From an uncultured Ignavibacteriales bacterium (GTDB lineage: Bacteria; Zixibacteria; MSB-5A5; GN15; JAAZOE01), in assembly GCA_964549765.1 (NCBI GenBank), contig CAZJWR010000009.1, forward strand, positions 15,442 through 79,441: a stretch of 64,000 nucleotides of DNA, read 5' to 3'. Position 1 is the first letter of the stretch. Every line of letters starts with the position of its first letter. Shown here in pieces: positions 30,027 through 45,895 of the stretch. The notes below the pieces were generated by a model, which saw nothing but the letters and a program-made list of their open reading frames with translations, searched no databases and was not told the DNA's origin. Made by a program: the position numbers and the translations under genes.

Positions 30027-33000
30027 TCATTTCATCAAAACCATCTTTTTCTCCACACGCATATCGTCGGTGGTCAGCCGGTAGATATAAATGCCGCTGG
30101 CGACCACCTTCCCGTCATTGCCGGTGCCGTTCCAGATGATCCGGTGGACCCCGGCCGATTGCCTCTTGTCGAACAGAACGGCAACGCGTTCGCCGAGAAT
30201 ATTGAAAATGTCGATGGTCACGTGGGCCTCGTGCCTCAGCTCATAGGAGATGGCCGTCGTCGCATTGAAGGGATTGGGATAGTTTTGATTCAGCCTGAAG
30301 GCCGACGGCAAAGGACCGCTGATATCGGCGGGCAGTGTATTGCCGTAATAATCGGAAAGCTGCACTTTAACCAGTTCGAATATGCCATGTCCTCGGAGAG
30401 GTACGGAGAATATATTCACAGCGCCGGCGGGAATTTCGGGGCTGCCATTCATGCTGAAGACAAGAACTTTCAATTCGTTTTCGGTAAGGCCGTATTTTAT
30501 ATCCATGCCGGGAGCGCCGTCGAGCAGGTGCGGTTCACTGATCTCATAACCGGAATAGCGAAATACGAAATATCCTCCGCCGATACCGATGCGTGAATCG
30601 GTTAGAAGGGTTGCTTGCGTGTTTTCCAGTTCAACGCTTGCTGATGCCGTAATACCGGGCGGGATCGGCTTGAAATTGGGAGTAACGTTGCCGGTGATCA
30701 CACGGACCTGGTAAACCAGATCGGCGATGGATAACGTCGCCCCATCGAGATTAACATCCGAGGCCGCCATCGAAGCATCCACGTGATTTCCGAAGGCGTC
30801 CAGTCCACGAACGAAATAATTGGTGAACATGACGGCATCCGCCACCTCATTGGCCACCCGATTGACATTGAGATCGCCCATTGCGTAAATATTCGAATCG
30901 GAGGCGGCGACGGTGAATGTCCGGGTCGTCATCCAATTGCCGTATACGATGCCGTCGTAAGCGCGGGCGCGCCAGAAATATGTGGATCCGTTATCGAGTA
31001 CGGTGTTCACCTGCCAGGACGTAGTCCCCGATCCGGCGCTCACGAATCCCGATTGAGCCGCCAGGGGCGAAAATGCGGAAGCTTTTGAAATTTGAAAATG
31101 ATACTGGACCGGTGTCCCGTTGGGGTCGGAGACGTTGTTGATAATAAGTATCGGTTGCGACGTGTATACCTCCGCCTGATTTTCCGGAGCATTGCCCGCC
31201 GGGGCGGGGGGAGGATTGTTGGGGGTCGTGAAATCGAAGGGATCGGACCATCGCGACGTCGTCGTTCCATTGGTCGCCCGGCAATGCCAGTAATAGCGAA
31301 GCCCCTGACTCAATGGCGTGCCGGCGCCGTAGCAGGTCGTACCGGAGCCCTCGCTGACCCACCCCGATTGCCGCACAACTTTGGTAAACGCCAGGTCCTC
31401 GGCTATTTCGAACTGATACCGGACCGCATCGGCACAGTCGCCGTGATTGGAATTGCTGACGCACAGTGTCGGGACGGTTCCGACCGACGATCCCGGGACG
31501 GGCGAGTACCATACCGGCACCGCCGGCGGCGCGCTGCATGGTTCCGCGACCCGTAGGATTCTCCCCATATATGGTTTGAGGTAAAATACGGAATCGGACG
31601 CAGGCGACTGCACACCGTCGGTATTGATATTGTAATACAATCGGTGGAGATTGACGGCGACGCTGTCATGCACCCAGTCGGCCTGGCCGTTGGAGGTCCG
31701 CACAAGGACGACAACATTACTGTTGTTGTAATCGCGCCGCATAACGGCAATTTTGCTGTAACTGGTTCCGACCGAACTGATTTCATAGGCCGGCCCGTCC
31801 GGTTCGCCGAAATCGACTTCATAGATTCCCCGCCACCGGGTCGTGTCGTTGAATCGGCAGGGTGAGATAAATGCGTTCGTGTCACGCACCTGGAGGAAGA
31901 AGGCATAATGGGTCATGTATATTCGGGAGGAATCGAATTTCCAGTCGGAGGGATTGGAACTGCACAGGAAATCGCCCAAAAACAGCCAGTTGATATATCG
32001 CTCAGGATGTGCCGCCATTTTATTGGCCATGGCATACCATTGCTGCCAGCCGTTGGGCCAGGCCTTGAGGTAGTCGACGGGGTTCTCGAGACAGACGTTC
32101 GTGTAACGGATCTGCACGCCCAGCGCGCCCGGTGAAAACTTATCCACGTTGGCGAACGGACGAATCCGGTCCAAGCCTCGCGCGGCGCACGTCGAATCCA
32201 GCACTGCCGCGATGGTCGAGTCGATCAGCATGGTCGAGTAATCGTAATAGTGGGTGTTGGCGGCGACATCGTTGCCGATCCCCGGCTGTTCGTACCAATC
32301 GAGACCGCCGGTCGGGCCGCCGGTGGTGCCGTTTATATTATAATATGAGTAGAGACGCGGGGCGTACCCCTCCCGGTATTGGTTGTCCATGAAGAAGGCG
32401 GTCCAATGGTGATTGCCCGGCCCGCTGGACGCCGAATCCTCTATCAGATGCCGGCGATAGGCGTACGCTATGGCATTTCGGGCGTCGCGATTGAGGCCGT
32501 TGGCCAGCCAACAATAACCAGCCGGATAGAACATGGTATCGGACGAGGTATTGTTCCAGTATTGATAGGTGAACCGGCGCTTATGGTATGGTAGGCCGGT
32601 CAGCGAATAGGTGCGGGTCCCATCGCCGACGTTGGTGATATTGACGTAATCGTCGGATATATGCACGACCAAAGATTCCGGCGATACTCCGATACTGTCC
32701 AGATAGTGTTTGGCATAGACGTACAGCCAATAGGTTTGGACATCGGCCAGCCGATCATTGTATTGGGCGCCGGGATTGAAGCGGCTATAGAGGTTTATCT
32801 CCTGGCTGGATGCGTACGGTCCGCACCAGAACTCCTTGCCCATTCCCTGGGCGGCGTGATAAATGCTGTCGAACATCCCGGGCCAGTCGCCCAATCCGGC
32901 GACGCCGGCGTCGTACCGTTCCGCCAGCCACTGCGCGGTCGCATTTCTCGAGCCGTAATAGCTGTTGCCCCCGAACATGAATTTGTATGGCGTCTTGTCC

Positions 33001-33053
33001 TGTGCGGAGACCGCCGCCGATAGGAAAATCATGAAAAGGAGTAATCGTCGCAT
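30027..33053 (-). CDS. Large secreted protein: unknown N-terminal domain, two tandem ~100-aa beta domains, dockerin-like repeat pair, cohesin-like module, T9SS sorting domain
   Basis: Signal peptide MRRLLLFMIFLSAAVSA. Tandem repeat at 30909-31529. Dockerin-like segment GDLNVNRVANEVADAVMF...SDVNLDGATLSIADLVYQV (30687-30881). C-terminus NYPNPFNATTAISYEL...GIYIYRLTTDDMRVEKKMVLMK (30030-30299). Confidence 0.7.
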   Translation of the reverse strand: MRRLLLFMIFLSAAVSAQDKTPYKFMFGGNSYYGSRNATAQWLAERYDAGVAGLGDWPGMFDSIYHAAQGMGKEFWCGPYASSQEINLYSRFNPGAQYNDRLADVQTYWLYVYAKHYLDSIGVSPESLVVHISDDYVNITNVGDGTRTYSLTGLPYHKRRFTYQYWNNTSSDTMFYPAGYCWLANGLNRDARNAIAYAYRRHLIEDSASSGPGNHHWTAFFMDNQYREGYAPRLYSYYNINGTTGGPTGGLDWYEQPGIGNDVAANTHYYDYSTMLIDSTIAAVLDSTCAARGLDRIRPFANVDKFSPGALGVQIRYTNVCLENPVDYLKAWPNGWQQWYAMANKMAAHPERYINWLFLGDFLCSSNPSDWKFDSSRIYMTHYAFFLQVRDTNAFISPCRFNDTTRWRGIYEVDFGEPDGPAYEISSVGTSYSKIAVMRRDYNNSNVVVLVRTSNGQADWVHDSVAVNLHRLYYNINTDGVQSPASDSVFYLKPYMGRILRVAEPCSAPPAVPVWYSPVPGSSVGTVPTLCVSNSNHGDCADAVRYQFEIAEDLAFTKVVRQSGWVSEGSGTTCYGAGTPLSQGLRYYWHCRATNGTTTSRWSDPFDFTTPNNPPPAPAGNAPENQAEVYTSQPILIINNVSDPNGTPVQYHFQISKASAFSPLAAQSGFVSAGSGTTSWQVNTVLDNGSTYFWRARAYDGIVYGNWMTTRTFTVAASDSNIYAMGDLNVNRVANEVADAVMFTNYFVRGLDAFGNHVDASMAASDVNLDGATLSIADLVYQVRVITGNVTPNFKPIPPGITASASVELENTQATLLTDSRIGIGGGYFVFRYSGYEISEPHLLDGAPGMDIKYGLTENELKVLVFSMNGSPEIPAGAVNIFSVPLRGHGIFELVKVQLSDYYGNTLPADISGPLPSAFRLNQNYPNPFNATTAISYELRHEAHVTIDIFNILGERVAVLFDKRQSAGVHRIIWNGTGNDGKVVASGIYIYRLTTDDMRVEKKMVLMK

Positions 33054-44489: not shown

Positions 44490-44506
44490 TCGGGAGGAAC
44501 TGCACG

Positions 44507-45895
44507 ATGCGACTGACTCGGATATTGCTTCTCATGCTCATCATTCTGCCGGTATATGTGCAGGCAACCGATATATATGTCGACTCCCAAGTGGTATGCC
44601 GGGTCCGGCCTGGAGCCGATCCTGACACCGTGGCAGCGACGGTAGAAGCACTGGTGACCAACGGCATCGAATCCGCCGAGACGTACCTGTTCCAGTATCG
44701 GGTGCCCGCGCCGGTTGACTCGGTGATTCATCTTCTGATCGACAATCCGGATGTTATCGAGGCACACCCCAATTTCATCATACACATTAACCTGGACCAG
44801 GTCAGTCAGCCATTCGTCGACGGCGATCAGACCAACCAGGCCTTCGTCGACGGCATTTCTCCGGCGCATTATTTTGAACAATACGCCGAGGGCAACCTGC
44901 TCATGGATTCGGCGCATCTTATCAACCGGGGAGAAGGCGCCGTGATCGCTATAATCGACGGCGGGTGCGACAACACCAACCCGGTGTTCCAAAACCGGAT
45001 CGACGATGGCAGTTTCGATTTCGTTGATATCGATTATGAACCATGGGTAAATTCCGGCACGACCGGCAACCACGGCACCTTCGTCGCGGGCATCGCGGCC
45101 CGATGCGCTCCCGATGCTTCTCTGATGATCGTGCGCTGCTTCAGCGCCTCCGGGAGCGGTACCAGTTTCGATATCGCCCACGGTATCTATTATGCGGCCG
45201 AGCACGGCGCCGACATCATCAATATGAGCTTCGGAATGGATCGGTATAACTCGACGATAGCCGAAGCCATCGAAGCGGCATATTACCAATACGGGGTGGT
45301 GTTGACAGCCGCGGCCGGAAATTCCGGATTGGAGTTCGATCGTTTCCCCGCTTCGCATCCCTGCGTACTCAATGTGGCCGCAGTGGATTCCGCCGATATC
45401 AAAACCGATTTTTCCAATTATGGGTTCAGTGTCGCCGTGACCGCCCCCGGGGAGAATATCTATAGTTCGCTGGCCGGCGGCAACGTCTGGGGCTGGTGGA
45501 GCGGGACATCGTTCTCCGCTCCGTTTGTGTCCGGTTTGGCGGCGCTATTGAAATCGATGCATCCGGGCGACCCTCCGTACTCCATAATGGAGACAATGGT
45601 ACGGGCATCCGACAATATTGACGAAATCAATCCCGGCTATACGCTGCTGCTCGGGAGCGGTCGGGTTGATTTCCTGAAGACGATTTATCTACCCGGCGAC
45701 GCCAACGGAAGCGGTGGGGTTAATCTGGGAGACGTTGTTTATCTGGTGAACTACATCTTTAAGAGCGGTCCCGAGGCGTTGCCCCCGGAAAGCGGCGACG
45801 CCAATTGCGATGAAACGGTCAATATCGGCGACGCCGTGTTCCTGATCGATTATATTTTCCGGAGCGGAACGGAGCCGGTTCGTTGTGATTGGTGA
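44507..45895 (+). CDS. Secreted subtilisin-family (S8) peptidase with C-terminal dockerin
   Basis: GGGAGGA SD before ATG 44507. Signal peptide MRLTRILLLMLIILPVYVQA. Triad contexts AIIDGGCD (Asp), NHGTFVAGIAA (His) and SGTSFSAPFVSGLAALL (Ser). Dockerin at 45692-45892: GDANGSGGVNLGDVVYLVNYIF...SGDANCDETVNIGDAVFLIDYIF. Confidence 0.85.
   Translation: MRLTRILLLMLIILPVYVQATDIYVDSQVVCRVRPGADPDTVAATVEALVTNGIESAETYLFQYRVPAPVDSVIHLLIDNPDVIEAHPNFIIHINLDQVSQPFVDGDQTNQAFVDGISPAHYFEQYAEGNLLMDSAHLINRGEGAVIAIIDGGCDNTNPVFQNRIDDGSFDFVDIDYEPWVNSGTTGNHGTFVAGIAARCAPDASLMIVRCFSASGSGTSFDIAHGIYYAAEHGADIINMSFGMDRYNSTIAEAIEAAYYQYGVVLTAAAGNSGLEFDRFPASHPCVLNVAAVDSADIKTDFSNYGFSVAVTAPGENIYSSLAGGNVWGWWSGTSFSAPFVSGLAALLKSMHPGDPPYSIMETMVRASDNIDEINPGYTLLLGSGRVDFLKTIYLPGDANGSGGVNLGDVVYLVNYIFKSGPEALPPESGDANCDETVNIGDAVFLIDYIFRSGTEPVRCDW

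Follow-up and report, generated by a model that had tools for sequence, protein, structure and literature searches.

Putative cohesin-dockerin surface proteins with type IX secretion sorting domains at a Zixibacteria-type locus

Non-cellulosomal cohesins and dockerins were reportedly catalogued across the three domains of life by Peer et al. in 2009. A cellulosome-like complex has since been predicted, from sequence alone, for Candidatus Stygibacter (Cloacimonadota), and the model includes dockerin-bearing S8, C25 and glycoside hydrolase (GH) enzymes (Williams et al. 2021; PMC8542988). In a 2024 survey of the genomes of cellulosome-bearing bacteria, neither Gram-negative bacteria nor type IX secretion systems (T9SS) are mentioned. 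Here we analyse a 64-kb stretch of contig CAZJWR010000009.1, from an uncultured bacterium (the window, to which coordinates refer unless a contig is named), in which three neighbouring genes encode the secreted proteins P1 (30027-33053, minus strand), P2 (35124-40169, minus strand) and P3 (44507-45895, plus strand). These carry cohesin, dockerin and T9SS C-terminal sorting domains (CTDs). Our preferred reading is that P1, P2 and P3 are surface proteins of a diderm of the Zixibacteria type, within the Fibrobacteres-Chlorobi-Bacteroidetes (FCB) group, which combine non-cellulosomal cohesins and dockerins with the T9SS and putatively bind one another or other molecules; judged from sequence, we put its probability at roughly one half.

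The initial annotation of the window had proposed a possible cellulosome-style surface scaffold outside Firmicutes. Such a setting is not new: a scaffoldin with a T9SS CTD and dockerin-bearing S8/C25 peptidases had already been put forward for Cloacimonadota (PMC8542988). Our literature search found no paper mentioning Zixibacteria together with dockerins, and no description of a tail in which a dockerin, a cohesin-like domain and a CTD follow one another or of minimal cohesin-CTD families. The term cellulosome-style scaffold was overstated, given a single canonical cohesin beside a divergent one and dockerins that are borne by a protease, by a propeller protein and by P1, whose function is unassigned. 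A cohesin-dockerin network at the surface is plausible, and it is not a cellulosome. The cellulosome in the strict sense was rejected for want of a scaffoldin with multiple tandem cohesins and because the dockerins are not on carbohydrate-active enzymes (CAZymes) directed at plant cell walls. Profile scans of the GH38 and GH15 proteins in the window recovered neither a dockerin nor a CTD.

Modules of P1, P2 and P3

Family hidden Markov models (HMMs) were derived from two alignments, A1 with homologues of the P2 tail and A2 with those of the P1 tail. Profiles were compared with each other by hhalign, and structure models from AlphaFold2 (AF2) were compared with the Protein Data Bank (PDB) by Foldseek. 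Cut-offs were 24.1 bits for Pfam Cohesin (PF00963), 22.9 bits for Dockerin_1 (PF00404), 23 bits for TIGR04183 and 42.9 bits for TIGR02937. X is our working name for the β-domain that stands directly before the CTD in P1 and P2.

P2 is a predicted secreted surface protein of 1681 aa. Its open reading frame (ORF) extends to 40196, the likely start being the ATG at 40169, followed by a signal peptide (MKGKRSLLAVIIILAALYPALA); N-terminal Sec signal peptides were recognised by eye in both P1 and P2. The N-terminal cargo of P2 (36453-40055, minus strand) consists of an FG-GAP propeller, UnbV_ASPIC and BACON repeated twice in tandem, plus a third BACON domain (in Pfam terms twelve FG-GAP_3, two UnbV_ASPIC and three BACON_2 matches), and self-BLAST found the tandem units, aa 48-591 and 603-1146, to be 44.6% identical. 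The tail then holds, in the order that the initial annotation had given for it, a cohesin, a dockerin, X and a CTD. The cohesin (aa 1259-1395; 36012-36422, minus strand) is type I-like and was called by Pfam over aa 1259-1363 with 45.9 bits in the full protein and 47.4 bits in the tail alone. In an AF2 model of the 440-aa tail, which reached a predicted local distance difference test score (pLDDT) of 90 and a predicted template-modelling score (pTM) of 0.64, the cohesin forms a nine-stranded β-jelly-roll that superposes on solved type I cohesins with template-modelling (TM) scores of 0.80-0.85 and root-mean-square deviations (rmsd) of 2.0-2.5. Among its best structural matches is 3ul4_A (TM 0.85, rmsd 2.0). 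For the whole tail the top Foldseek match was the cohesin dyad 3l8q, over about 410 aligned columns, which fits both β-domains of P2 being cohesin-like.

The P2 dockerin (35811-36005, minus strand) comprises two 12-residue calcium-binding loops, each with its helix, and the helices lie at tail residues 162-174 and 195-207 of the AF2 model. Its Dockerin_1 call (aa 1401-1454) is borderline, with 21.8 bits in the full protein and 26.7 bits in the tail alone. By phmmer its best sequence match is 3ul4_B, a solved type I dockerin, to which it aligns without gaps at E 2.3e-4. X follows (aa 1470-1598; 35403-35789, minus strand), and the protein ends in a T9SS type A CTD (35127-35384, minus strand), recognised by TIGR04183 at 36.5 bits as well as by Pfam Por_Secre_tail and FlgD_ig.

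P3 is a predicted secreted subtilase, with a signal peptide, a prodomain, an S8 domain (44930-45616, plus strand) and a terminal dockerin (45692-45883, plus strand). Peptidase_S8 (PF00082) scores 132.9 bits, and with the motifs DGG (151), HGT (189) and GTS (333) the catalytic triad is intact at the level of sequence. That this protease ends in a dockerin and lacks a CTD, as first annotated, is borne out: Dockerin_1 gives 28.2 bits, and no CTD occurs downstream of P3 in any frame. Loss of a CTD through a frameshift artefact was rejected as an explanation, as no CTD-like ORF lies downstream and both close orthologues also stop at the dockerin. These two orthologues are on the relatives' contigs L005 and L035 (the latter 1.9 kb long and without context); the other matches to P3 were generic S8 proteins or matched the dockerin only.

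The dockerins of P2 and P3 are of one sequence type. Each consists of two segments in which a 12-residue EF-hand-like loop, D-x-N-x-D/S-G-x-V-x-x-x-D, precedes a helix, and the dockerin HMM derived from P2-tail homologues scores them almost equally (91.9 bits for P3, 91.8 bits for P2). Helix residues are strongly conserved among the paralogous dockerins (consensus GD.V.LINY.F.GGP.P), and P3 follows the same consensus as P2. By homology with type I complexes, the positions in contact with cohesin would be 10/11, 17/18 and 22 in either repeat; there P2 has IG/IQ/K and IG/VD/K, and P3 has LG/VN/K and IG/ID/R. Given the similar contact residues, the common consensus and the matching HMM scores, the two dockerins would be expected to share partners.

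P1 (1008 aa) has a signal peptide, a 490-aa N-terminal domain, two Ig-like repeats, a variant dockerin, X and a CTD. Pfam recognised an Ig_Rha78A_N-like repeat and a C-terminal sorting domain of the kind found in P2. The N-terminal domain (31539-32999, minus strand) matched nothing in Pfam at E<=10 and found no relative in a PDB sequence search; PDB sequence searches with this domain and with the P1-tail profile returned matches of the CTD/FlgD-like kind only. The variant dockerin (aa 724-790; 30684-30884, minus strand) contains the motif D-x-N-x-N/D-G-x5-A-D followed by a helix, twice, and this pattern is kept in nine homologues of the P1 tail. In P1 and these nine, both loops are 13 residues long, one more than the canonical 12. 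The segment has no Pfam match at E<=10 and is also missed by the canonical dockerin family HMM. Its own family, however, aligns with the canonical dockerin profile of Zixibacteria at an hhalign probability of 97.9% (E 4.9e-13), both loops having one residue inserted. The segment had been annotated as dockerin-like, and the profile comparison upholds that description without extending it to family membership: by sequence profile it is a dockerin-like variant and not a member of Dockerin_1. X of P1 (aa 797-915; 30309-30665, minus strand), homologous to that of P2 by X HMM and hhalign, is followed by a T9SS type A CTD (30030-30290, minus strand; TIGR04183, 38.6 bits), again as annotated. Indeed, every coordinate first assigned to a module in P1, P2 or P3 maps onto a module that we recovered.

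The X domains required more than a family search. As isolated segments, neither X of P1 nor X of P2 has a Pfam match even at E<=10, and phmmer with X alone against 1.8 billion representative sequences gave only 20 matches at E<=1e-3; X evolves too fast for single-sequence searches. A profile of X applied to the six-frame translation of the window detected both copies (E 6e-36 for P2, 8e-17 for P1), and the two copies are related to each other with an hhalign probability of 98.4%. Against the cohesin columns of A1, X scored 95.2% (E 2.5e-8) over 84 columns. An AF2 model of P2 X alone (pLDDT 92.8, pTM 0.84) retrieved cohesins as 46 of its 50 top PDB matches in Foldseek, at TM scores of about 0.6, the other four being structures of the carbohydrate-binding module family CBM2. 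The best match was the non-cellulosomal cohesin 2xdh of Archaeoglobus fulgidus (E 3.9e-7, TM 0.62). On the strength of the hhalign result and of these structural matches we call X cohesin-type. The earlier designation of a second cohesin-like domain in P1 and P2 therefore holds for fold, as modelled for the P2 copy, and for profile, and fails for Pfam: X is a divergent cohesin-type β-sandwich on the former two grounds and not by Pfam membership.

A six-frame scan of the window with the family HMMs found a single cohesin, that of P2, and two canonical dockerins, those of P2 and P3; X domains were detected in P1 and P2, and CTDs in three proteins, namely P1, P2 and an S8-PKD protease at 19539-23366. 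Cohesin and dockerin modules are thus concentrated in the 16-kb stretch from P1 to P3. The S8-PKD protease, on the plus strand, is a second subtilase; it has four PKD domains, lacks a dockerin and carries a T9SS CTD (TIGR04183, 29.3 bits). The S8 proteases of the window accordingly show two C-terminal endings, a T9SS CTD in one and a dockerin in the other.

Module architectures among relatives

All named homologues of the P2 and P1 tails belong to Candidatus Zixiibacteriota, which is a member of the FCB group, to candidate division GN15 or to organisms recorded as unclassified 'bacterium'. We classified 195 retrieved proteins with the family HMMs, a sample that is biased by the queries used. 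The commonest architecture was that of cohesin-cohesin-CTD (41 proteins of about 430 aa), followed by cohesin-CTD (34 proteins of about 270 aa, with E values down to 1e-31), cohesin-dockerin-X-CTD (28), dockerin-X-CTD (22), a terminal dockerin only (13), 13-residue-loop dockerin-X-CTD (8), multiple dockerins (2) and S8-dockerin-CTD (1). The proteins of about 270 and 430 aa consist of a signal peptide, one or two cohesins and a CTD, with no further detectable module, and no CTD protein in the census has more than two cohesins. The relatives thus fall into three complementary classes: minimal T9SS-anchored cohesins, proteins that end in a dockerin and lack a CTD, and proteins in which dockerin and CTD occur together.

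The N-terminal domain of P1 has about 48 homologues, mostly from Zixibacteria and the FCB group; a single Dehalococcoidia record and an 'FCB group bacterium' are among those named. Its closest homologues, proteins of 669 aa with identities of up to 83%, have a terminal dockerin where P1 has the dockerin-X-CTD tail. One cargo domain is therefore found with either ending, making a terminal dockerin and a CTD-bearing tail interchangeable C-terminal endings. The terminal dockerins of two proteins with P1-type cargo, P0131 and P0143, lack most of the first calcium loop and have a C-terminal Cys-Cys-Pro motif. They may be naturally truncated, like dockerins reported from Ruminococcus flavefaciens (PMC12270676).

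Several other architectures were encountered among the relatives. The protein P0035 (589 aa, encoded on the 4.46-Mb Zixibacteria contig JAWLBI010000001.1) and P0050 consist almost entirely of four to six tandem dockerins with Cys-rich spacers and are the inverse of a scaffoldin. On metagenome contig JABAHP010002624.1 (L061), seven dockerin ORFs are densely clustered at 1057-14878, all of them lacking a CTD; a cohesin accompanies the dockerin in two, and several bear dockerins at both termini.

The genes for cohesin-CTD proteins sit in conserved housekeeping or flagellar neighbourhoods. A gene for a 433-aa cohesin-cohesin-CTD protein lies inside a flagellar cluster, on the opposite strand, between the rod genes and fliJ (L003, labelled Zixibacteria, 3878-5179; L004, a near-identical read-assembly contig, 3963-5264; L071, 10001-11302). 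A gene for a cohesin-CTD protein of about 270 aa, whose cohesin is not called by Pfam, occupies a conserved neighbourhood of OPT transporter, ThiI and Mla genes (L068, 10001-10819; L069, 6973-7770; L070, 6919-7716), and looks core and not accessory.

Weighing the readings of the locus

The CTD of a T9SS substrate directs export and is then replaced by a surface anchor. Under our preferred reading the T9SS would export P1 and P2, their CTDs would be removed and the new C-termini would be fixed on the outer face of the cell. X would lie nearest the membrane, followed outwards by the dockerin and, in P2, by the cohesin; the large propeller or unknown cargo would be outermost. Calcium-dependent pairing between molecules would tie dockerin bearers to the cohesins of P2 and of small cohesin-CTD anchors encoded elsewhere in the genome, the captured proteins being P3 and other surface proteins by way of their dockerins. 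Proteases and adhesin-like proteins would thereby be displayed in a network of the plug-and-socket kind. Pairing between molecules is favoured by the small cohesin-CTD families, by the interchangeable endings, by the likeness of the P3 and P2 dockerins and by the conservation of the P2/P3 block on contig L005, described below. Moreover, the P3 dockerin, although of the sequence type of that in P2, cannot have a partner on its own chain. Which cohesin would receive it is a further matter; a specific pair of P2 cohesin and P3 dockerin is a tentative proposal, one candidate among others.

A number of observations weigh against this reading. P2 has one canonical cohesin, the other being divergent, and its dockerin directly abuts the cohesin with almost no linker. 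None of the genes for T9SS components was found in the 64-kb window. P3, having no CTD, has no known route across the outer membrane, and its orthologues are rare. The linkage of P2 and P3 was found in one of two relatives (L005, and not L001). Lastly, within 10 kb around the cohesin-CTD genes we found neither dockerin ORFs nor operons of anchor and cargo; this points to a dispersed system without a gene cluster of the cellulosome type. The CTD-anchored surface assembly first proposed for this locus is therefore sustained in part, in that the family evidence fits binding between proteins, while the passage of CTD-less P3 across the outer membrane is unaccounted for.

The best-surviving alternative, which we nonetheless consider unlikely, is that the tail works within its own chain. 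The dockerin would pack on X, and in P2 also on the cohesin, to form a rigid calcium-stabilised stalk between the cargo and the CTD or membrane, and nothing would be captured. The near-absent linker of P2, together with a pTM of 0.64 for a chain of four domains, hints at such fixed packing, and linkers are very short. Dockerin-X-CTD is, moreover, a unit conserved across 58 or more of the 195 proteins, the dockerin subtype tracks the X subtype (13-residue loops with X1, canonical loops with X), and X has lost the Pfam cohesin signature. The subtype pairing may, however, be plain co-inheritance, and a self-contained stalk leaves unexplained the lone dockerin ends of P3, P0131 and P0143, the proteins with four to six dockerins (P0035 and P0050) and those made up of one or two cohesins and a CTD. 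Lone-dockerin, dockerin-only and cohesin-CTD-only proteins need partners on other molecules, if the modules bind at all.

The genes next to P2 and P3 suggest another explanation. Upstream of P3 lie, all on the plus strand, a gene for a sigma factor of the extracytoplasmic function (ECF) class (40569-41165; TIGR02937, 58.5 bits), a small ORF (41140-41724) and a gene (41721-44489; Pfam CHAT and TPR) whose product, a TPR-CHAT protein of 922 aa, lacks a signal peptide. With P3 as the last member these genes form a co-directional run with operon-like spacing (overlaps or an 18-bp gap), which diverges from P2 across an intergenic region of 370 bp. On L005, a contig from a metagenome-assembled genome labelled Ignavibacteriales, the same five-gene arrangement recurs, with amino-acid identities of roughly 58-67% between the proteins; over the 10 kb that lie downstream of P3 there is no synteny with the window. 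Conservation of the P2/P3 block rests on this one relative. Aligning the intergenic region between P2 and the sigma factor gene with that of L005 revealed short conserved islands and, over the region aligned, no interpretable promoter motif. The contig with the other P2 orthologue (L001, Zixibacteria GCA_043819555.1) has no sigma/CHAT/S8 block; within 10 kb of the orthologue it encodes a small cohesin protein and a protein with cohesin, BACON and terminal dockerin. On L001 the P2 orthologue (6186-11221) is split immediately ahead of its cohesin into two gene calls of 1260 and 406 aa, through a frameshift or an assembly error.

P3 might thus be a secreted protease induced by stress or a signal, as the output of the ECF sigma factor and TPR-CHAT protein; its proximity to P2 would then reflect shared regulation or mere gene order and no docking on P2, and its dockerin would have either no partner or one on a different cohesin protein. 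We regard this as less likely still than the self-contained stalk. Sigma factors are coupled to TPR-CHAT proteases in type III-E craspase loci. The combination is a known regulatory theme, also represented by DdvS-DdvA (PMC11506125), and the single orientation and tight spacing of the run from sigma factor to P3, kept in L005, speak for regulatory output, as does the P2 orthologue on L001 that lacks the block. Regulation of this kind is, however, compatible with docking. The divergent promoter region that P3's run has in common with P2, in a position kept in L005, would favour co-expression, and the P3 dockerin is intact with its full set of calcium-binding residues. As an aside, the TPR-CHAT protein looks cytoplasmic, has dyad motifs with His and Cys that were recognised by eye, and matches Csx29 weakly (E 5e-5); the sigma factor and TPR-CHAT protein could be a protease-gated sigma switch outside any CRISPR system.

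It is improbable that the modules are remnants or have been repurposed, with dockerins serving as calcium-binding stabilisers and cohesins as Ig-like spacers or glycan binders that do not pair; the few CBM2 structures among the matches of X lean that way, as does the fact that, to our knowledge, no partner has been proven for the majority of non-cellulosomal cohesins and dockerins, yet the dockerin helix residues are strongly conserved across paralogues, both types of module have expanded together in the same lineage, and the fold matches of X are overwhelmingly cohesins and not CBMs.

A further possibility, to which we attach very little weight, takes pairing between molecules one step earlier. 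Cohesin-CTD proteins would act in trans as T9SS carriers: a CTD-less dockerin protein such as P3 would fold in the periplasm, dock on a cohesin-CTD protein or on P2, pass the large translocon as a complex and stay tethered. If true, this would account both for the crossing of the outer membrane by CTD-less dockerin proteins and for the many minimal cohesin-CTD proteins, and the dockerin would be a secretion and anchoring tag served by a partner protein.

Elsewhere in the window, two paralogous genes for cytidylate-kinase-like proteins (PF13189) lie a few kb apart, at 24393-25895 (plus strand) and 28989-29822 (minus strand); one product reaches 500 aa through an extension, and a BON domain is fused to the other.

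Significance and comparison with known systems

If cohesin-dockerin pairing does operate on outer membranes served by the T9SS, the plug-and-socket device of the cellulosome would be a general principle of surface organisation, which uncultured FCB phyla would use for proteases and adhesins besides cellulases. Zixibacteria are abundant in sediments, and we know of no cultured representative. Our preferred reading, if true, would provide a testable handle on how they attack particulate organic matter. It would also offer new orthogonal cohesin-dockerin pairs for synthetic surface display in Gram-negative hosts, among them a dockerin with 13-residue loops and a cohesin that sequence profiles miss. 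Moreover, the export of CTD-less dockerin proteins raises the question of whether the T9SS can carry passenger complexes.

The variant loops of P1 have a partial parallel in the group 1 dockerins of R. flavefaciens, which are functional with a 13-residue calcium-binding repeat (PMC2930009). There, however, only the second repeat has 13 residues, whereas both do in P1 and its nine homologues, and the sequence families are unrelated.

As to whole systems, the Stygibacter model resembles the present case in coming from an FCB-related diderm, with signal-peptide-bearing enzymes (an S8/S53 peptidase among them) that end in dockerins and a cohesin protein that ends in a T9SS CTD (PMC8542988). It differs in having one scaffoldin of 3755 aa with tandem cohesins and CBM2/CBM3. 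In the Zixibacteria case there is no multi-cohesin scaffoldin; we find instead CTD proteins with one or two cohesins, a recurrent tail of dockerin, cohesin-like domain and CTD, and cohesin and dockerin on one protein. Archaeoglobus fulgidus (2xdh) is not cellulolytic and has cohesins and dockerins all the same, but it is an archaeon without a T9SS, and its cohesin, unlike X, is recognisable by sequence. Adaptor scaffoldins (ScaA of Acetivibrio cellulolyticus, 3l8q, and ScaA/ScaC of R. flavefaciens) combine cohesin and dockerin in one chain, as P2 does. Several cohesins and long, flexible linkers mark these adaptors, which connect CAZyme-bearing scaffoldins. P2, by contrast, carries a large propeller cargo, and its dockerin is wedged, on minimal linkers, between two domains of the cohesin type. 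The closest functional likeness is to OlpA/OlpC of Clostridium thermocellum (3ul4, 4dh2), in which a single type I cohesin on a surface anchor holds one dockerin-bearing enzyme, although identity in sequence is only 17-22%. The anchor of OlpA/OlpC is an SLH domain on the Gram-positive wall; in P2 its place would be taken by a T9SS CTD on the outer membrane.

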